From Alphaproteobacteria bacterium (lineage in GTDB: Bacteria > Pseudomonadota > Alphaproteobacteria > Rs-D84), in contig SUUO01000003.1 of NCBI GenBank assembly GCA_015062485.1, positions 28,026-92,025 on the forward strand: a stretch of DNA of 64,000 nt, given 5' to 3'. Under the pieces are notes generated by a model, which searched no databases, was not told the origin of the DNA, and saw nothing but the letters and a program-made list of their open reading frames with translations. Numbering within the stretch: the stretch's first letter is position 1; each line of letters begins with the position of its first letter. The translations under genes were made by a program, and so were the position numbers. Positions 3,056 through 63,932 of this stretch are shown in pieces.

Positions 3056-3082
3056 AAAATCCCGCATTATGCGGGATTTTTT
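3054..3082. terminator. bidirectional intrinsic terminator
   Basis: AAAAAAT-CCCGCA tta TGCGGG-ATTTTTT between convergent rpiB and 3082..3834. Confidence 0.85.
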
Positions 3083-3834
3083 CATTCGTTACACGGCGCG
3101 CTGTACAGATATGTACCAACGTCATCAGAATATACATTCCCCGCGCGCGAATAAAGCCAGCACGTCCCCAGGGCAGCATCACTTAGATGCGTTACTTCTT
3201 CGCACGCTGGCGCCGTCCTCAAACTCGTCCTACACGTTCCGTATGACGACGCGTCATAGTCCCTAAAAATCAAGCCCTGGCGTTCAATTGCAAGCCCACC
3301 AAGTCCAGACGGCGCCTCGTCTGGGAACATCTGGTCTTCTATGTCACTGCCACGATATGTCATCCATTTGTTCATTTCTGTAAAAAGATACACACCAAGA
3401 GTTTGCTTCTCTAATATGCTAGCTTTGCACGCATATGCGCAATTATACATACATGAATCCAAATCAGCGCTTGTATCCGCCCCCGTTTTTTCTGGAAACC
3501 ACTGTGTCGCATATGGGCGTATCATTTTACACCAACAATAATTACCCGTTTGTGTGGGCGCCGCAAGATGTTTTGCAAATGTACCCATACTTGTGAATCT
3601 CGTCGACGAACACGCTGAAATTATTCTGGCATCTGTAAGATATGTATTTACAGAACCAGCAACCGTGAAACTATGATGCGACGGCCAAATCAATTCTCCA
3701 ACTGTATAAGTGTCATTTGCCGTCCAACCAAATGCCGTACTCCCAAGAAAATCGGCCCCAATTGACACTTGGGTAATCGATGCCGCAAATGCGGGTTCTA
3801 ATACCAACATATATAATATAAATATTTTCTTCAT
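3082..3834 (-). CDS. secreted Cys-rich protein, fused L-domain + S-domain
   Basis: Signal peptide MKKIFILYMLVLEPAFA. L signature: NYCWCKM..QW..DSCMYNCAYAC. C-terminal S signature: CWLYSRAGNVYSDDVGTYLYSAPC. GGGGGG RBS. 10 Cys in the mature part. Confidence 0.85.
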   Translation of the reverse strand: MKKIFILYMLVLEPAFAASITQVSIGADFLGSTAFGWTANDTYTVGELIWPSHHSFTVAGSVNTYLTDARIISACSSTRFTSMGTFAKHLAAPTQTGNYCWCKMIRPYATQWFPEKTGADTSADLDSCMYNCAYACKASILEKQTLGVYLFTEMNKWMTYRGSDIEDQMFPDEAPSGLGGLAIERQGLIFRDYDASSYGTCRTSLRTAPACEEVTHLSDAALGTCWLYSRAGNVYSDDVGTYLYSAPCNE

Positions 3835-3854
3835 CTTTTATCCCCCCTATATTC

Positions 3855-4331
3855 TTAAAACGCCTCAAACGCACCAAAAATCTTGCCACGAAAATCTGAT
3901 GATGTTACCATATAGCTTGCACAATTAAGCGCACAACTTGTCACACACTCCAACGCCGAAGTATAAACAGTAGTATTAGCCGGCAATCTAACATAACTAG
4001 ATAAAACTGGTTCGGTCATCTGGCACCAACAATACTTATGCACACCACCCATCGCGTTTTTCAATGGTCCCACCGACGGAGACCCCGAAGCCACCGTTGA
4101 ACAATGTCCATACATCATAACCGCAACATTTTCGCCCGTATAGGGCAGTGTGCATACCACCCCATGTTTATACGCGTATTGGCTAAAAGACGAATATGCA
4201 CTTGAATGCACACACGTTGTTTGCGACGCCAGATCTGCTCTGAACGGTGAACAAATATAAGACCGCGTTGGCGTGGCAGCATTCGCAGACAAAACGCCCC
4301 CAATTAAACAAAAACATAAAAATCTTTTCAT
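3855..4331 (-). CDS. secreted Cys-rich L-family protein
   Basis: RBS AGGAGAAAGGAAAATG. Signal peptide MKRFLCFCLIGGVLSANA. KYCWCQM ... ECVTSCALNC. 9 Cys. ORF 3855..4355 trimmed to the ATG at 4331. Confidence 0.85.
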   Translation of the reverse strand: MKRFLCFCLIGGVLSANAATPTRSYICSPFRADLASQTTCVHSSAYSSFSQYAYKHGVVCTLPYTGENVAVMMYGHCSTVASGSPSVGPLKNAMGGVHKYCWCQMTEPVLSSYVRLPANTTVYTSALECVTSCALNCASYMVTSSDFRGKIFGAFEAF

Positions 4332-4628
4332 TTTCCTTTCTCCTGTTGTTATCAATCCAACGCACCCGCGTCAGATAATCAAAAACCACCATTCATCAGG
4401 TGGTCAGGAGGTTGGAAACAATCATCGGAATTGTGTCGCTTATTCAATATATTCGCAACCCTCCTGACGACAAATATCAGGAGTTTAAATTTACCGTCCG
4501 CAAGACAGATATCCATTGCGAACGCCGATGCACGGGTTTCCACACCCCATTATGACAAAAACCGCCATAACAAGTATATTATAGCGAATTCTTTCAACTT
4601 AGGCAAATACTAAGATAAATAAAAATTA
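4332..4628 (-). promoter_or_regulatory. leader module copy 1 (promoter + conserved structured 5' leader, shortened variant)
   Basis: Read on - strand: -35 TTGCCT (4601-4606), 17-nt spacer, -10 TATAAT (4578-4583). A/T motif at 4613-4628. Key 7-mers 4413-4419 (tGGAAac) and 4536-4542 (gtTTCCa). Lacks the internal T1 hairpin. Confidence 0.75.
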
Positions 4629-4677: not shown

Positions 4678-5592
4678 TTATTCGTCGCCTGCGCGCGGAT
4701 GGGCGTGCGCATATATATTTGAAATATCACTCATATTAACGCGTGTATAAACTTGGGTTGCCGCCAATGATGAATGCCCCAGTAATTCCTGTAAACTTCG
4801 TAAATCCGCACCACCGGCCAATAAAGCCGTCGCAAACGTATGGCGCAATGCGTGCGGTGTCACATAGTCCGGCAACTGTAAATAATTTCGCAGGTTTTCC
4901 ACAACCTTTTCCGCCATACGCGCCGACATCGGCAGGCCCCGCACACTGCGAAACGCAACCTCGTCCGGGACCTTTTCGAACGGGTGGGTCGCCATATATT
5001 TATCCATCGCATCCCAAACCGCCGGCAATACCGGGACCAGGCGTTCCTTGTTCCCTTTACCCACGATACGCAAAACATCGGGGCGGCCCATAACATCCCG
5101 ATTTCGCAGGTTCAAGGCCTCTGATATTCGCAGGCCACACCCAAACAATAACACCACCAACGCCCAATCACGCGCCGCAACCCACGGATTTTTTACATTT
5201 GTCGCACGAATCGCCCCGTGCATATCGGCAACATCCGACACGTTTATCGCCTTGGACAATTTGCGTGGCACCTTTGGCGAAGATACAAGGCCAATTGCAT
5301 CGTTTTTTATATCGTATTTTCGCCCCAAGAACTTGTAAAACCCACGCAACGAAGACAATGCCCGCGCCGTCGATTTATACGCCAGTCCGCGCCGCTGACG
5401 ATCCGCCAAATATGCGCGGAAACAAATCGTATCTGCGCGCGACAAATCCGCGACATCCGCATCCGCACCATTAAATTTGTTAAAAAATTTCAGGAAATCT
5501 AAAACATCCATTTCATACGCATCAATCGTATTCAACGAATACCCCTTGGTATCAGACAAATATTTTAAAAATTCCTGAATAACGTCTTGCAT
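4678..5592 (-). CDS. tyrosine recombinase XerC/XerD family
   Basis: N-terminal SAM-like domain (YLSDTKGYSLNTIDAYEMDV). Catalytic region GLRISEAL, HALRHTFAT, LLGHSSLAATQVYTRV. Confidence 0.9.
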   Translation of the reverse strand: MQDVIQEFLKYLSDTKGYSLNTIDAYEMDVLDFLKFFNKFNGADADVADLSRADTICFRAYLADRQRRGLAYKSTARALSSLRGFYKFLGRKYDIKNDAIGLVSSPKVPRKLSKAINVSDVADMHGAIRATNVKNPWVAARDWALVVLLFGCGLRISEALNLRNRDVMGRPDVLRIVGKGNKERLVPVLPAVWDAMDKYMATHPFEKVPDEVAFRSVRGLPMSARMAEKVVENLRNYLQLPDYVTPHALRHTFATALLAGGADLRSLQELLGHSSLAATQVYTRVNMSDISNIYAHAHPRAGDE

Positions 5593-16480: not shown

Positions 16481-16506
16481 AAAAACGCCCGATTGGGCGT
16501 TTTTTT
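16479..16506. terminator. bidirectional intrinsic terminator
   Basis: A-run-CGCCC gatt GGGCG-T-run between convergent genes. Confidence 0.85.
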
Positions 16507-17242
16507 AATCCAACTTAAAACAGCCTGAACGCAACTCCCTGGCACGACGGCGCAGTTTTCGAAAAATCCGTGTATTGCGCGCCATTTTAAATGCCATTGT
16601 CATCGGGGTTATTGGCTGACTAATCCTGGTATACATACTGGCTTTGCGAATACGCTGTAATGAATCCAGATATGAATCTATAAAATCATACGGTTTGTTG
16701 TGCCGCAATATATAACGACATTGACGCATTATCACACGATAACGCCGATATGCCGCAACACGGATTTGTCGCAATTGATTATCCGGAATTCGCACCGGCG
16801 TCACAATCCACACGTCACGCAACAAAGAATAATGCGAACCATACATACAATCCTTGTGCAGGGGATTACACACATCACGACAATCAACCAGTTTTATATC
16901 AACCCCGCGACCAAATATTGATATATTAAACATACGCATCCACGCCCATTTTAATGCACGCAAAATTGTCCCTTCGTCCCCCGGCATTGTTGCGCGCAAA
17001 CGTGACAAATCCGCCACAATACAGACATCAACATCACTGAATTTATCCCAGTAATAATTTGTTATTGATCCGTGGATAAAAATATCCACAACATCAGATT
17101 TATCAATCGGCAATTTTGCAACCACCGACAAATATCGCACAAATTCCCAAACCGCCATTTGCAACGTCTGGTTAACCAACGGATTTAAATGCACGCGCGA
17201 TTCCCACACCCGCGGCACCAGGGCCCTGTGATACACGAACAT
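16505..17242 (-). CDS. Pol-beta-superfamily nucleotidyltransferase-like protein (paralog 1)
   Basis: IHGSITNYYWDKFSDVDVCIVAD fits the hG[GS]-x(9-13)-DhD NTase signature. About half of residues are identical to 44340..45074. ATG 17242 sits 10 nt after the S-gene stop with a GGGGG RBS. ORF 16505..17515 trimmed. Confidence 0.7.
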   Translation of the reverse strand: MFVYHRALVPRVWESRVHLNPLVNQTLQMAVWEFVRYLSVVAKLPIDKSDVVDIFIHGSITNYYWDKFSDVDVCIVADLSRLRATMPGDEGTILRALKWAWMRMFNISIFGRGVDIKLVDCRDVCNPLHKDCMYGSHYSLLRDVWIVTPVRIPDNQLRQIRVAAYRRYRVIMRQCRYILRHNKPYDFIDSYLDSLQRIRKASMYTRISQPITPMTMAFKMARNTRIFRKLRRRARELRSGCFKLD

Positions 17243-17252
17243 ATTTTGCCCC

Positions 17253-17576
17253 CTATGACGAAGATTCTTCCATTTCACAGGCCTCGGTAAATTCGTACGT
17301 GCCAGACGCATCCGTATAAGATACGCCCGCCGGCGCATACATAAAACAATTTCCCGCAGGATTCGCCACCAGGCACGACGAAACCGTCCCCGCACTAACA
17401 TACCCCGACGGACACGACGTATTTGCCAGGATAACATCCGGCTTGCTGATTGTGATATACCCGGTGGGACATTCCGTTGCCGGCGCGGCGGCATCAGTAT
17501 TATAAATCGGCACAAAATACGACATTATAAATAATAACGTCACCCGCCAATCCGCAAAAAATATTGATTTTTTCAT
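17253..17576 (-). CDS. secreted Cys-rich S-family protein
   Basis: AAAPATECPTGYITI ... CFMYAPAGVSYTDASGTYEFTEAC. 5 Cys in the mature part. Confidence 0.85.
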   Translation of the reverse strand: MKKSIFFADWRVTLLFIMSYFVPIYNTDAAAPATECPTGYITISKPDVILANTSCPSGYVSAGTVSSCLVANPAGNCFMYAPAGVSYTDASGTYEFTEACEMEESSS

Positions 17577-18045: not shown

Positions 18046-18379
18046 TGTCTTATCTCCTTTCTGCTTTAAAAAAAAACAAAACCACACGTAAAACGGGTGG
18101 TCAGGAGGTTCGAAACAATTATAAGGAATTGTGTGCTTATTTTGTGCGGACACACCGCCCATTATTCACAACCCTCCTGACCTTTTATAGCCAGGAGACA
18201 TTTCATCCAGGACCACAAACGAAAAAACACGCCATATGGCGCGCCCGGTTCGGATATTTCGTTTTGTTCCAGACGCCTTATATCGGGTTTCGACACCCCA
18301 TCACGACCATCGATCGTAACAAGCAAATTATAACCAAATATTTCATCCAACGCAAATACTTAGATAAATAAAAGTTTAT
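18046..18379 (-). promoter_or_regulatory. leader module copy 3
   Basis: Read on - strand: -35 TTGCGT (18350-18355), 17-nt spacer, -10 TATAAT (18327-18332). A/T motif 18362-18379. Key 7-mers 18110-18116 (tCGAAac) and 18287-18293 (gtTTCGa). Confidence 0.8.
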
Positions 18380-18556
18380 CGCAGGAAGTACAAACAGAAT
18401 TTTTTGCAAAAAAAATTCTGTCATCCCGTGGCTTGACCACGGGACCCAGGTCATATTTCCTTTTTATTTGCTTTCACCTGGATTCCGGGGTCAAGCCCCG
18501 GAATGACAAAAACGTAAAACGTTTTTGTTAAATAAACTTTTATTTTTATAAGTATT
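18362..18556. repeat. MITE-like palindromic element (copy M1) bounded by inverted AGATAAATAAAAGTTTA motifs
   Basis: Four consecutive hairpins: CAGAATTTTTTGCAAAAAAAATTCTG, CCCGTGG cttga CCACGGG, ATTCCGGGG tcaag CCCCGGAAT, ACAAAAACG taaaa CGTTTTTGT. Near-identical to 25658..25865 in reverse orientation. Confidence 0.8.
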
Positions 18557-25358: not shown

Positions 25359-25674
25359 TTTCAATCTCCTTTCTTTTGTTTTATTCGCGAAAAAACAAAA
25401 ACCACACGTTTTTCACGAGTGGTCAGGAGGTTGGAAACAATCAATACGAATTGTGCTGCTTATTCAATATATTCACAGCCCCCCTGACACTAAATGCTCA
25501 GGAGATATTTGTCATTTGGTTTTCACACGAAAAAACACGCCATCGGCGCGTCGGATTTCGTTTCCAAACGCGTATTGCACGGGTTTCCACACCCCATTAT
25601 GACCATCGATCATAACAAACAAATTATAACCAAATATTTCATCCAACGCAACGACGAAGATAAATAAAAGTTTA
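25359..25674 (-). promoter_or_regulatory. leader module copy 4
   Basis: Read on - strand: -35 TTGCGT (25646-25651), 17-nt spacer, -10 TATAAT (25623-25628). A/T motif 25658-25674. Key 7-mers 25432-25438 (tGGAAac) and 25583-25589 (gtTTCCa). Confidence 0.8.
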
Positions 25675-25865
25675 GTGGGGTAATCAGTTTACAAAAACGT
25701 TTAACGTTTTTGTCATTCCGGGGCTTGACCCCGGAATCTAGGTGAAAGCAAATAAAAAAAGAAATATGACCTGGGTCCCGTGGTCAAGCCACGGGATGAC
25801 AGAATTTTTTTGCAAAAAATTCTGTTCGTACTTCCTGCGATAAACTTTTATTTATATAAGTAATT
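25658..25865. repeat. MITE-like palindromic element (copy M2), inverted relative to M1
   Basis: Same four hairpins as 18362..18556 in reverse order. Bounded by AGATAAATAAAAGTTTA (25658-25674) and its inverted copy ATAAACTTTTATTTATATAAGTAATT (25840-25865). Confidence 0.8.
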
Positions 25866-25906
25866 ATGTATTCCTCCACTTACCACTAACCACTTACACT
25901 AATCAC

Positions 25907-27114: not shown

Positions 27115-27387
27115 CTATCTGCCTTTAATTTTTTGTTGTTTTTCACGATAGAAGTCGAACGCCATTTTTCGTGCCTTGGCACGCGTAATCATACATAACT
27201 TCTCTTCATCATCTGCGAACAGGTATTTCCGTTCACCGTGATATTTATAGTTTACCGTAACCTCGTATCCCAAAAGAACGTGCCCCTTATCACGATAATC
27301 ACGATAAACCTCGACCGGTGCAGACACAGCAACCGGTGTCCAGTCAAACCAAGTTTTTACATCATTTACAATACCACGTAAACTCAT
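27115..27387 (-). CDS. hypothetical protein, single copy of the same ~85-aa domain
   Basis: WFDWTPVAVSAPVEVY...LLGYEVTVNYKYHGERKYLFADD aligns with the repeats of 26595..27113. Confidence 0.65.
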   Translation of the reverse strand: MSLRGIVNDVKTWFDWTPVAVSAPVEVYRDYRDKGHVLLGYEVTVNYKYHGERKYLFADDEEKLCMITRAKARKMAFDFYREKQQKIKGR

Positions 27388-44339: not shown

Positions 44340-45074
44340 CTACTTTAATTGAAATTTTCTACTGCGTTGTTCTTTGGACAATCGTCGCAATCGCCGCAAA
44401 ATACCAGTATTACGAACCATTTTAAATGCCATAGACAATGATGTTATCGGCTGTTTATACTGCGTATACATACTTTGCGTACGAATTTTTTGCAAGTTTA
44501 CCAAATACGTATCTATATATTCCGGCAACATCTTCTGGCGCAACATAGCGTAACATTGGCGCATTATTGCGCGCTTTTTTACATATGCCGCCCGACGTAT
44601 TGTACGCAATTCCGATGCACTTAATCGAACAGGCGTATTAACCCAACAATCATTCACCAAAGAATACGATGGCCCAACACATTTATATCTTTCATCAAAA
44701 CCGTCATTGATATCGACTATACTTAAATCGACGCTACGACCATACAGCGAAAACCAAAACGTACGTTTCCACGTATGTTTTAGTGAATTTGTTATTACCG
44801 TAACATCTGTCCCATTCAGCATACTGCGCACACGCGACAAATCCGCAACAATACGTAAATCAATATCACTGTATTTATCCCAATAATAGTTAGTTATCGA
44901 CCCATGCACCAACGCATCTTGAATATCAGATGGCGAAATTGGCAATTTGACAACATCACCCAGATACCGCACAAATTCCCCCGCAATCATCATCAGTGAT
45001 TGTCGCACCAATGGATTTATTTTTGTCGGACTGTCCCAAACACGTGGCGCCAGCGTTTTATGATACCGAAACAT
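44340..45074 (-). CDS. Pol-beta-superfamily nucleotidyltransferase-like protein (paralog 2)
   Basis: VHGSITNYYWDKYSDIDLRIVAD. Collinear with 16505..17242. ATG is 11 nt after the upstream stop. Confidence 0.7.
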   Translation of the reverse strand: MFRYHKTLAPRVWDSPTKINPLVRQSLMMIAGEFVRYLGDVVKLPISPSDIQDALVHGSITNYYWDKYSDIDLRIVADLSRVRSMLNGTDVTVITNSLKHTWKRTFWFSLYGRSVDLSIVDINDGFDERYKCVGPSYSLVNDCWVNTPVRLSASELRTIRRAAYVKKRAIMRQCYAMLRQKMLPEYIDTYLVNLQKIRTQSMYTQYKQPITSLSMAFKMVRNTGILRRLRRLSKEQRSRKFQLK

Positions 45075-45934: not shown

Positions 45935-45935
45935 G

Positions 45936-46030
45936 TTAGTGGTTAGTGTAAGTGATTAGTGATGGCACTATGATGTGCGGCATTTGCCACACACAAACAC
46001 TATCCACTAGCCACTCACACTAATCACTAA
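45936..46030. repeat. inverted pair of TTAGTG-type short-period repeats next to the rho terminator
   Basis: TTAGTGGTTAGTGTAAGTGATTAGTGATGG (45936-45965) versus CCACTAGCCACTCACACTAATCACTAA (46004-46030). The same tail occurs at 7548-7577, 25875-25908 and 49242-49270. Confidence 0.7.
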
Positions 46031-54717: not shown

Positions 54718-55992
<1,275 letters not shown>

Positions 55993-56057
55993 TCAAGCCG
56001 ACAAATGTATGGGGGGGACACGCAAAAGCGTATCCCCCATTTCTTTATAGAACGACA

Positions 56058-62716: not shown

Positions 62717-62746
62717 ATAAAATCCCCCATTTGGGGGGGATTTTTA
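62717..62746 (-). terminator. intrinsic terminator
   Basis: ATCCCCC attt GGGGGGGAT with flanking A/T runs, downstream of 62744..63721. Confidence 0.8.
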
Positions 62747-63721
62747 TAACAACGGGTTGATAACATTACACTCTAATGCGTTATATAGCCCGGTTCCAAT
62801 TCGAAAATTTGATGAACAGTCACTGGCACAATTGTTGTTGCAGTTTGCAATCATTGTTGCGTCGGTGGAGCTCCAATAATAAAACGTTTCCAAATACGCG
62901 CATTTTCCACCCGTACAGCACCAACAATAATAACCCTCGGTCGAACTGGGGGTACCCTGGGTATTTACTGTCCCACTGGTTTCGGAGCATAGGCCGGTCA
63001 CGGTATTACTACTGCAGCCCTTGAAGTTGCAGACACCAGCGTGCCTATATGTACCAGAAGTATCATTAAAAGCTCGGGCAGGTTTAAGGAAACAATCGTT
63101 TTCATTGTTTCCATTGCCGGCCCCCAATTCACCGCGTCTCCCCTCGCTATCATCGGGACACGCTGTGCAACCACTGCATCCCACAGACACTCTATCAGAA
63201 CACGTAGCAGTACCATAATACTGATAATCACACTTATATGTAGTACTTGTACTGCACAGACCTGTTGCTGTATTACAGGTATGTGTTACTGACTTTACAT
63301 ACCCCTGTGCCGGACTGGAGGTCGTATTTTCGCCACAGTCACTATCACTGGTACACCCAGTCGGGTTTACAGGTCCAATGACGCTACTACCACAAGTTTG
63401 ATATGTAATTGTGCCACAACCATACGCACTGGCGTCTATTGTTGTATCAGTTAGCGTAAAACCAGCCTTGCACCCGGTACAATATCCAACATAAAATGGG
63501 TCTTGTCCCGTCTTGGTTGGCGAAAACATAACATAACCTCGTGCCGTACAAATCGTGGATGCGGGCAACGTGGTAATACTTGTCGCGCCCGATGGCAAAG
63601 ATATATATGGCCCCCCCACGGCACACAGACCCGTCGAAGACGGTATTGCCGCCACGGCAGATACGGATATAAACAGCCCCATCACCACCGCCGCAACCAA
63701 ACCGACGTTTAGATTCGGCAC
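62744..63721 (-). CDS. secreted Cys-rich protein, S-like region followed by L-domain (reverse-order fusion)
   Basis: Hydrophobic N-terminus. ...FNDTSGTYRHAGVC..., then GYYCWCC ... W ... ANCNNNCASDC (C-x3-C-x3-C). GTG start as in the ORF track; the true start is uncertain. Confidence 0.7.
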   Translation of the reverse strand: MPNLNVGLVAAVVMGLFISVSAVAAIPSSTGLCAVGGPYISLPSGATSITTLPASTICTARGYVMFSPTKTGQDPFYVGYCTGCKAGFTLTDTTIDASAYGCGTITYQTCGSSVIGPVNPTGCTSDSDCGENTTSSPAQGYVKSVTHTCNTATGLCSTSTTYKCDYQYYGTATCSDRVSVGCSGCTACPDDSEGRRGELGAGNGNNENDCFLKPARAFNDTSGTYRHAGVCNFKGCSSNTVTGLCSETSGTVNTQGTPSSTEGYYCWCCTGGKCAYLETFYYWSSTDATMIANCNNNCASDCSSNFRIGTGLYNALECNVINPLL

Positions 63722-63889
63722 AAAAACGGGGGATAAAATATGCAGAAATCAGGGTTTTTTAATTGCGAATTTATGCCAAGGAAAAACGTCCCATTGGATT
63801 CGGCATATGTTTTTCGTCTCTATGCCACGTATTATAACGCTTTGCGCGATTTTAGGCAAGCACGAAATTCATAGATAAATAAAAGTTTA
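63722..63889 (-). promoter_or_regulatory. family-type promoter (A/T motif + TTGCCT-17-TATAAT) with a short, unrelated leader
   Basis: Read on - strand: -35 TTGCCT (63854-63859), -10 TATAAT (63831-63836). AGATAAATAAAAGTTTA at 63873-63889. The ~100-nt leader lacks the conserved blocks and carries hairpin GGCATA..TATGCC. Confidence 0.65.
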
Positions 63890-63932
63890 GCGAAGTATTT
63901 TCATATCACATATCTCTTGTCTCATATCTCAT

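Follow-up and report, generated by a model that had tools for sequence, protein, structure and literature searches.

A putative 85-bp inverton with gix-like sites at the translation start of a cysteine-rich protein gene in an uncultured alphaproteobacterium

The gene and the module in front of it

The gene considered here, gene A, lies close to the end of a 64,000-nucleotide stretch of DNA (the window; contig 1:28026-92025) from the 0.94-Mb genome of an uncultured, host-associated alphaproteobacterium assembled in 17 contigs, and is preceded by a short module that may be subject to DNA inversion. The annotated open reading frame (ORF) occupies positions 62744..63721 of the window on the (-) strand and encodes a protein of 325 residues, 27 of which are cysteines. 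In the assembled orientation, which we call P, it begins with a GTG codon lacking a Shine-Dalgarno (SD) sequence and the N-terminus reads VPNLNVGLVAAVVMGLFISVSAVAA; the hydrophobic core VGLVAAVVMGLFISVSAVAA is preceded by an n-region that is uncharged as assembled and becomes basic only once the segment described below is flipped. An intrinsic-terminator-like hairpin (62724..62740, (-)) stands immediately 3' of the stop codon, so that the gene is monocistronic. That gene A is real follows from copies 99–100% identical to it on contigs from other samples, at least 23 of which encode either the 99% identical protein P0001 or a 261-residue version called from Met65, and from the relative P0002, which has 42% identity to the gene A protein and the same layout of an S module followed by an L module. 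The product is best explained as an exported Cys-rich protein of the window's L/S family with a putative export signal. In other assemblies the gene has been called from Met65 (about 63529), whose ATG follows a GAGG at a distance of a few bases; the product, of 261 aa, would lack the signal peptide.

Gene A appears to be transcribed from its own strong promoter, and the candidate is a predicted sigma-70-type sequence, TTGCCT-17-TATAAT, at 63831..63859 (-), which agrees with the consensus at 10/12 positions. A BLAST search of the whole genome with the 200 nt upstream of the gene returned seven further copies at 87–100% identity, giving eight in all. Near-identity begins at the -35 hexamer, covers the leader and ends at about codon 11, and the coding sequences beyond are unrelated. 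All eight proteins start MPN(L/P)(N/K)VGL and are Cys-rich; one of the sisters (contig 8:15762) matches Pfam Ephrin_rec_like at 2.2e-12. The promoter, kept in 8/8 copies, the leader and the first ~11 codons form a second conserved regulatory module, hereafter type 2. In this gene A differs from the window's L/S proteins, which are encoded behind a structured (type-1) leader of ~250 nt with a helix, a terminator and SD-mimic blocks.

The original prediction had described the ~103-nt leader of gene A as unrelated to the family leader, and this was borne out: the comparison of the two gave zero similarity beyond a shared A/T motif, the type-1 leader with its three kinds of element is absent from gene A, and a search of the gene A leader against Rfam gave nothing significant. 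The consequence drawn there, a natural control by which the contribution of the structured leader could be judged, has to be given up, as the leader of gene A is itself a conserved module of eight copies built around two inverted sites resembling gix, the site of the Gin invertase of phage Mu. Gene A is therefore unusable as a leader-less control.

Two inverted sites 85 bp apart

Each type-2 module contains two 30-bp sites beginning GCCGAATC, and their spacing is 85 bp in 8/8 modules. A site consists of a 14-nt half-site, a 2-bp centre and another 14-nt half-site and is an imperfect palindrome. At gene A, site 1, GCCGAATCCAATGG-GA-CGTTTTTCCTTGGC, is found at 63775..63804 (-), its centre being 63789-63790. 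Site 2, GCCGAATCTAAACG-TC-GGTTTGGTTGCGGC, lies exactly 85 bp downstream of it at 63690..63719 (-), has its centre at 63704-63705 and overlaps the GTG start and codons 1–10. The predicted invertible segment between the two centres covers 63706..63788, and the promoter lies outside it. The inner half-sites are degenerate, with 9/14 positions matching the consensus half-site.

In all 13 site pairs of the genome, read by hand, the centres are non-palindromic reverse complements of each other (GA/TC or GT/AC). The larger set of 37 site pairs from this and related genomes was selected on reverse-complementary centres, so that all of its members show them. Asymmetric centres of this kind are what a serine invertase needs for inversion. 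The sites were also read as tyrosine-recombinase sites of the lox or dif kind, with 12-bp arms and a 6-bp spacer, and this reading was rejected: spacer positions 5-6 often differ between the partners while the central 2 bp always match. As the centres always match and the neighbouring positions often do not, the sites point to a serine recombinase with a 2-bp crossover and not to a tyrosine recombinase with a 6–8-bp overlap. The inner 12 bp of site 2, taken as the reverse complement AAACCGACGTTT, agree with the native gix core AAACCGAGGTTT (PMC5175349) at 11/12 positions and have the same GA centre; over the 20-bp core the agreement with gix is 12/20.

The ATG of an 11-codon mini-ORF (MPNPMGRFSLA and a stop; 63771..63806, (-), in the P orientation) belongs to the flank of site 1, and the mini-ORF is for this reason probably incidental. 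Translational coupling of gene A to it was considered and dropped, since this ATG is replaced by CTG in the relatives L006, L020 and L052/L053.

The same boxes, 84–85 bp apart and with GT/AC or GA/TC centres, define a sister class of mini-invertons at five other loci (contig 10:40303-40190, contig 12:136355-136470, and contig 8:25152-25265, 39704-39820 and 58685-58800). Three of the five copies were read in detail, and in these a TTGACA-18-TAAAAT promoter within the segment is directed away from the downstream secreted-protein gene; the class as a whole was taken as OFF in this genome. In the relatives L037 and L044 the promoter is directed toward the gene. A promoter inside the type-2 segment, as in the sister class, was looked for and rejected, because only the -10-like TAAAAT is kept there and a -35 is missing. 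Transcription of type-2 genes should therefore need the outer promoter.

One locus in both orientations in a related species

For gene A the inversion predicts the junctions ...GGGACGTTTAGATTCGGCAC... and ...ATGCCAAGGAAAAACGTCGGTTTGG.... The predicted flipped junction is present in 1/201 family genomes (G122); 15 genomes, each of them a member of this genus, contain the junction of the assembled orientation, and they do so many times. The G122 locus has exactly the predicted flipped form and its ORF starts with ATG, the protein beginning MPRTIVGL.

Two comparisons bring together both orientations. In one of them the flipped G122 locus (L001, MPRTIVGL) is set against a contig from ENA (L051, MPNLNVGL): the ORF is the same at 99% nucleotide identity, and the 87-bp segment of one is the exact reverse complement of that of the other. 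The ENA contig, however, joins the upstream region and module of another G122 locus to the L001-type ORF, with the junction at site 2, and because its upstream part matches this different locus it is possibly chimeric. It may be an assembly chimera formed through the repeated module, or the product of a site-specific deletion or exchange between modules; the junction of a P-oriented segment with the G122-type ORF must still exist in the sample from which it was assembled. Its two source loci, L007 and L001, lie on G122 contig 1 at ~100.7 kb and ~130.5 kb, 30 kb apart.

The clean case of one locus in both orientations comes from a congener, where L052 (ENA ERZ28654464) differs from L053 (NCBI GCA_017935465.1) and L054 (ENA ERZ27256931). 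The flanks are collinear for 1.5 kb on each side, the 86-bp segment is 100% identical as the reverse complement, and the exchange took place at the GA/TC centres. Site 1 at this locus agrees fully with that of gene A in its left half and centre, and site 2 does so over 23 nt. As modules with the same site cores are thus flipped in related bacteria, the expression of gene A is most likely governed by inversion rather than unregulated.

A search with the flipped N-terminus as a word returned only the known cluster representative, and exact patterns run against metagenome contigs, one specific to the flipped junction and one shared by the two states, gave zero matches, which makes that collection uninformative here. 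One of the contigs carrying gene A, L034 (ENA ERZ27248306), ends inside the invertible segment; such an end is compatible with a break of the assembly graph at a repeat or at a site of mixed orientation and is non-diagnostic.

The candidate invertase

The recombinases of the genome comprise three of the tyrosine and two of the serine type. The tyrosine recombinases are XerC-like (window 4678-5592, (-)), XerD-like (contig 16) and a phage-type integrase (contig 8). One of the serine recombinases is large (529 residues) and the other small (~198 residues). The small one, encoded at contig 8:53219-53812 and 198 aa long, matches Pfam Resolvase at 3.9e-32 and has a helix-turn-helix; it is our candidate invertase. 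Its best relative among solved structures (PDB) is the Gin DNA-invertase, with an E-value of 7e-16 vs about 5e-7 for resolvases. Besides the genome's own copy, close orthologues (E <= 1e-105) are present in 14/14 related genomes holding type-2 modules, and matches at E <= 1e-20 in 142/201 family genomes. The small serine recombinase would most likely be the enzyme acting on the modules.

The translation start in the two orientations

On the strand opposite to gene A the segment contains what is predicted to be a cryptic translation-initiation cassette (63728..63788, (+), antisense), with the SD sequence GGGGG at 63728-63732 and an ATG at 63740. Its presence explains an ORF of 44 codons on the plus strand (63740..63874) that starts MQKSGFFNCEFMPRKNV. 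When the segment of gene A is flipped in silico the cassette reads MQKSGFFNCEFMPRKN, in frame with VGLVAAVV..., so that the gene acquires an SD sequence, an ATG and the basic signal-peptide start MQKSGFFNCEFMPRKNVGL...; the protein then begins MQKSGFFNCEFMPRKNVGLVAAVV..., a basic n-region in front of the unchanged hydrophobic core. In relatives that carry the flipped form gene finders call the starts MRKTGIFICEFMPRTIVGL (P0012) and MQKSGIKFLNILPKTIVGL (P0018), and in the L052 module the second start is a TTG, which leaves the ATG of MQKSG as the sole one.

Altogether 26 distinct type-2 modules were flipped in silico. Of these, 19 acquire an open, in-frame ATG lying exactly 49 nt ahead of the site-2 centre together with an SD-like motif (GGGGG, GGAG or AGGAG), and 25 give some in-frame ATG. 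In the assembled orientation an SD sequence before the start, be it GTG, TTG or ATG, was found in 0/26. RNA folding gives the assembled GUG region a stem of -25.3 kcal/mol (z -2.5), and predicts the flipped SD/AUG region to be unstructured (z +0.7). The doubt that the original prediction had cast on the start codon of gene A was well placed: it is a GTG without an SD sequence, buried in a stem. All eight type-2 copies are presumed to be in the OFF orientation, and for gene A and its seven sisters alike the expressed form probably has a start and N-terminus other than those annotated. A terminator acting in the OFF state and formed by a CCCCCG/GATGGGG stem was considered and rejected, as its 3' arm is not conserved among the paralogues.

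The A/T motif upstream of the promoter

Upstream of the promoter, at 63873..63889 (+), lies an exact solo copy of the A/T 17-mer AGATAAATAAAAGTTTA, which the original prediction had regarded as part of one promoter unit shared with the seven modules that have the structured leader. The exact motif and the TTGCCT-17-TATAAT promoter are indeed present at gene A, but the identity of the unit does not hold, because the promoter sequence, its spacer and the spacing of the motif differ. The -35 hexamers of the other modules are TTGCGT, TTGCGC or TTGAAC, with different spacers, and their likeness to the gene A promoter is at the level of consensus hexamers. The 17-mer stands 13 nt from the -35 at gene A vs 5–6 nt in the family modules, where it falls at about -42 to -58, i.e., where an UP element (an A/T block at about -40 to -60) would lie. 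Only 4/8 second-module copies carry it, at 13, 13, 15 and 26 nt from the -35, so that with respect to the UP-element position it is 13 nt off the -35 at gene A and among the sisters may be 15 or 26 nt off or absent.

In the window the 17-mer has 9 matches at <=3 mismatches vs 0.28 expected. Nor is it confined to eight loci, as had been proposed: there are 44 copies at <=2 mismatches genome-wide, 17 of them before the family leader, 4 before the second module and 23 before neither. The claim that it is separable from the structured leader was correct. The 17-mer is not promoter-specific, about half of its occurrences having no promoter. Since nine inverted pairs of it bound a conserved, hairpin-rich palindromic element of ~190–230 bp, in both orientations, it is to be seen as the end of a repeat element and not as a promoter-defining sequence.

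Alternative explanations

We consider it rather probable that gene A is a phase-variable, inversion-controlled gene for a secreted Cys-rich protein that was assembled in its presumed OFF state. The 85-bp cassette with its two inverted gix-like sites, which separates the promoter from the body of the gene, would most likely be flipped by the Gin/Hin-type small serine invertase (contig 8:53219-53812), with exchange at the central GA/TC. As assembled, the gene would offer the ribosome only a GTG without an SD sequence, half-buried in a stable stem, and an uncharged N-terminus MPNLNVG..., and its translation would most likely be off or very low; after the flip, the SD sequence, the ATG and the basic signal-peptide start would stand in frame with the unchanged hydrophobic core, an arrangement that is most likely the ON state.

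A number of observations speak against this explanation, and some of them suit the alternative that the module is a locked relic, derived from an inverton but no longer flipping in this species, with gene A expressed constitutively from the outer promoter via the GTG. Flipped copies of gene A or of its seven sisters number zero, 8/8 genome copies and 3/3 gene A contigs from other samples being oriented as assembled, and the eight predicted flipped proteins are absent from a collection of 15 billion proteins by exact look-up, a weak test because gene callers often choose the internal Met65 (P0004, 261 aa). With a single orientation in the eight modules and the three contigs, and without flipped proteins, the flipping of gene A and its ON/OFF assignment are what we infer and not what we observe. 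The degeneracy of the inner half-sites (9/14) is likewise what a relic might show, and in the relative L038 (G055) the segment has the same orientation and is followed by the productive-looking basic N-terminus VPKKNVGL, so that the assembled orientation can in principle be productive. Across the genus the assembled consensus contains 26 distinct modules in this orientation vs 2 flipped, which implies that switching is rare, strongly biased, or lost in some lineages. Two further difficulties concern the mechanism and its cargo. A segment of 85 bp is far below the length of the classical Hin and Gin substrates and has no room for a classical internal enhancer, and an enhancer or a Fis-like factor was not identified, none having been sought. 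The A-rich, K/R-coding character of the inner half-site is partly seen also in the sister class, where it is non-coding, so that by itself it is no evidence of selection on coding.

We nevertheless regard the locked relic as unlikely, though it is the alternative to be taken most seriously. Near-perfect sites, the 85-bp spacing and an antisense frame with an SD sequence and an ATG, preserved across eight paralogues and many species, would hardly be expected without continued use. A module that does flip has identical site cores, the invertase gene is intact, and the start codon on which constitutive expression would depend has no SD sequence and is buried. Control at the RNA level, in which the ~100-nt leader would act through a leader peptide (MPNPMGRFSLA) or through alternative pairing at the GUG and no DNA would be inverted, might draw on the mini-ORF with its weak SD sequence, on the pairing of the 5' end of the leader with the GUG region in the centroid fold and on the stable stem over the start. 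The fold of the whole leader is, however, no better than that of shuffled sequences (z -1.4), the CCCCC/GGGG outer stem is not conserved among the paralogues, the mini-ORF has lost its ATG to CTG in several relatives and a match in Rfam is absent, while the conservation of the leader is explained by two recombination sites and an antisense coding frame; we hold this mechanism to be very improbable. The least credible of the alternatives, and one to which we attach next to no weight, is that the family promoter and A/T motif have simply been joined here to an unrelated, functionless leader, which would make the locus a natural control. The identical motif and the leader devoid of any family-leader element agree with it. 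The leader being an eight-copy conserved module with recombination sites, the differences in promoter sequence and in its spacing from the motif, and the nature of the motif, which is a terminal repeat of the palindromic element and lacks such a promoter in 23 of its own 44 copies, all argue against it.

A broader form of the inversion hypothesis is possible, although we would stop short of calling it probable: these gut Alphaproteobacteria with tiny genomes may have a genome-wide set of gix-type invertons of ~85 bp, i.e., eight helical turns, served by one Gin-like invertase without a classical enhancer. One subclass would flip the SD sequence, the ATG and the basic signal-peptide start, so that each secreted Cys-rich protein would be switched in its translation and export while the promoter stays on.

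Relation to known inversion systems

The proposed switch resembles Gin/gix of the phage Mu G segment and Hin/hix of the Salmonella flagellar switch in having imperfect palindromic inverted sites with an asymmetric 2-bp crossover centre. The likeness to Gin/gix goes further, as the inner site core of gene A agrees with gix at 11/12 positions, the GA centre among them, and the ~198-aa recombinase with Resolvase and helix-turn-helix parts has Gin as its nearest solved relative. The invertible segments of these systems measure about 1 kb (Hin) and 3 kb (Gin), in contrast to only ~85 bp here; at least 13 scattered switches per genome would be served by one unlinked enzyme, and an enhancer or Fis, which were not sought, have not been identified. 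The cargo differs as well: a promoter in Hin, alternative C-terminal exons in Gin, and an SD sequence, a start codon and a signal-peptide n-region in the case of gene A.

In the cwpV switch of Clostridioides difficile, operated by the tyrosine recombinase RecV, the inverton lies in the 5' untranslated region downstream of a fixed promoter, and a terminator forms in the OFF orientation. Gene A is similar in that the promoter is outside the invertible element and the switch would act after transcription initiation on a gene for a surface or secreted protein; it is unlike cwpV in its gix-like sites, in the apparent action on translation initiation and on the signal peptide, and in the overlap of the segment with the coding sequence. 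The Mycoplasma surface lipoproteins vsp, vlp and vsa switch by poly-A tracts or by inversions at vis sites that move an expression site. They share with the present family the many surface or secreted paralogues with a near-identical 5' region and signal-peptide start and divergent bodies in a tiny genome; here, by contrast, every gene has its own promoter and would have its own mini-switch.

Partial intergenic invertons, or gene-altering programmed inversions (Milman et al. 2023; Chanin et al., 10.1101/2023.03.11.532203), are mostly long, of the shufflon type, and swap C-terminal domains. Like them, the gene A segment spans a gene boundary, so that inversion would alter both coding sequence and regulation; unlike the published ones, it is 85 bp long and would swap the translation start and the first ~16 residues. 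Searchable papers on Candidatus Enterousia contain no mention of inversions or of these proteins.

If our interpretation is correct, a genome of 0.94 Mb would use two control systems for one family of secreted proteins, a structured RNA leader and DNA mini-invertons, the latter with at least 13 switches in total. A serine-invertase substrate of 85 bp carrying a start codon and a signal-peptide start would extend the known minimal size and cargo of invertons, and phase-variable surface or secreted proteins would be a key feature of an uncultured host-associated lineage.

The S and L modules of the protein

The protein of gene A contains two Cys-rich modules. The S-like one (aa 163–233; 63023..63235, (-)) has the pattern C..YYG...C..CP...C...FNDTSGTYRHAGVC and is the equivalent of the cap found at the C-terminus of many family proteins. 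The L-like one (aa 241–317; 62771..63001, (-)) follows at the C-terminus with the pattern CSETSG..G.P....GYYCWCC...CNNNCASDC..FR. The placement of the S-type motif in the middle of the protein and of the L signature at its end had been foreseen correctly, with FNDTSGTYRHAGVC at aa 219–232 and GYYCWCC...W...CNNNCASDC at aa 263–302, and so had the reversal of domain order relative to the fusion encoded at 3082-3834, where L occupies aa 69–155 and S aa 203–248.

Whether these assignments are recovered by profile searches depends on the method. Hidden Markov models (HMMs) built from the genome's 23 stand-alone L and 26 stand-alone S proteins detect the L-then-S fusions, 3082-3834 among them, and give zero matches to the gene A protein (for L at E <= 10; hmmsearch); two paralogues of the same order, contig 12:84114 and contig 12:131686, are likewise unmatched by these plain models. 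A search of the gene A protein against Pfam gave zero families at E <= 1, including Ephrin_rec_like / GCC2-GCC3 (PF07699). The domain calls for gene A come solely from profile–profile comparison and an exhaustive phmmer search. With hhalign the L profile aligns to residues 241–317 at a probability of 91% (E 1e-6, 70 columns) and the S profile to residues 163–233 at 61% (E 8e-5, 65 columns). Among the 1.84 billion representatives searched with phmmer only 18 are relatives at E <= 1e-3, and most of these are shorter proteins finishing with the D.xGTY....C cap; residues ~80–234 of gene A align to the C-terminal ends of S-ending proteins, best of all P0027 at 1e-13, and residues 235–310 match the L-type repeat proteins P0029 (8.9e-8) and P0036 (6.8e-6).

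The protein of gene A shares with the L/S proteins of the window and with the L-then-S fusion 3082-3834 the CWC...C-x3-C-x3-C module, the D.xGTY....C cap and a signal peptide, putative in gene A, and all probably belong to one genome-wide family. It differs from the fusion in the reversed order of the modules, and its L-like part, a divergent subfamily by its sequence, differs from the L family in being without the PAVSxW core and too divergent for the family HMM. The product of gene A is best explained as a complete S-ending protein to which an L-like module may have been added C-terminally. The S-then-L order is real and recurrent, being found in three paralogues of the genome as well as in P0002 and in P0042, a compact S-then-L protein of 183 residues. 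Fusions in both orders (L-S and S-L) support the idea that the L and S modules work together physically.

Other repeats and neighbouring genes

The core of the palindromic element reaches E 4.8e-9 against Rfam WsnRNA46 (RF02625), short of the gathering score. Copies bounded by inverted 17-mers and lying between a terminator and a promoter module occur in the window at 18362-18549 and 25658-25857 and elsewhere at contig 5:41187-41381, contig 9:15095-15290 and 55834-56019, contig 16:67866-68076, contig 8:58280-58520, and contig 12:10592-10779 and 27142-27352. The copy at contig 12:27142 has a 12-bp direct repeat, TACTTCGCTAAA, at its boundary. The solo 17-mer of gene A looks as if the core of the element and one of its arms were missing. 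Short tandem heptamer-like repeats of the CATATCT/CACATAT and CACTAAC/CACTTAC types, found in the window at 63895-63930, 25875-25905 and 45935-45975, occupy the gap from the upstream terminators to the 17-mer.

The XerC-like tyrosine recombinase gene of the window (4678-5592, (-); 304 aa) adjoins a pair of L/S genes and the L-then-S fusion at 3082-4355. Homologous nucleotidyltransferase-like genes, with weak matches to Pfam Polbeta/NTP_transf_2, follow two L/S cassettes at 44340-45074 (-) and 16505-17515 (-).

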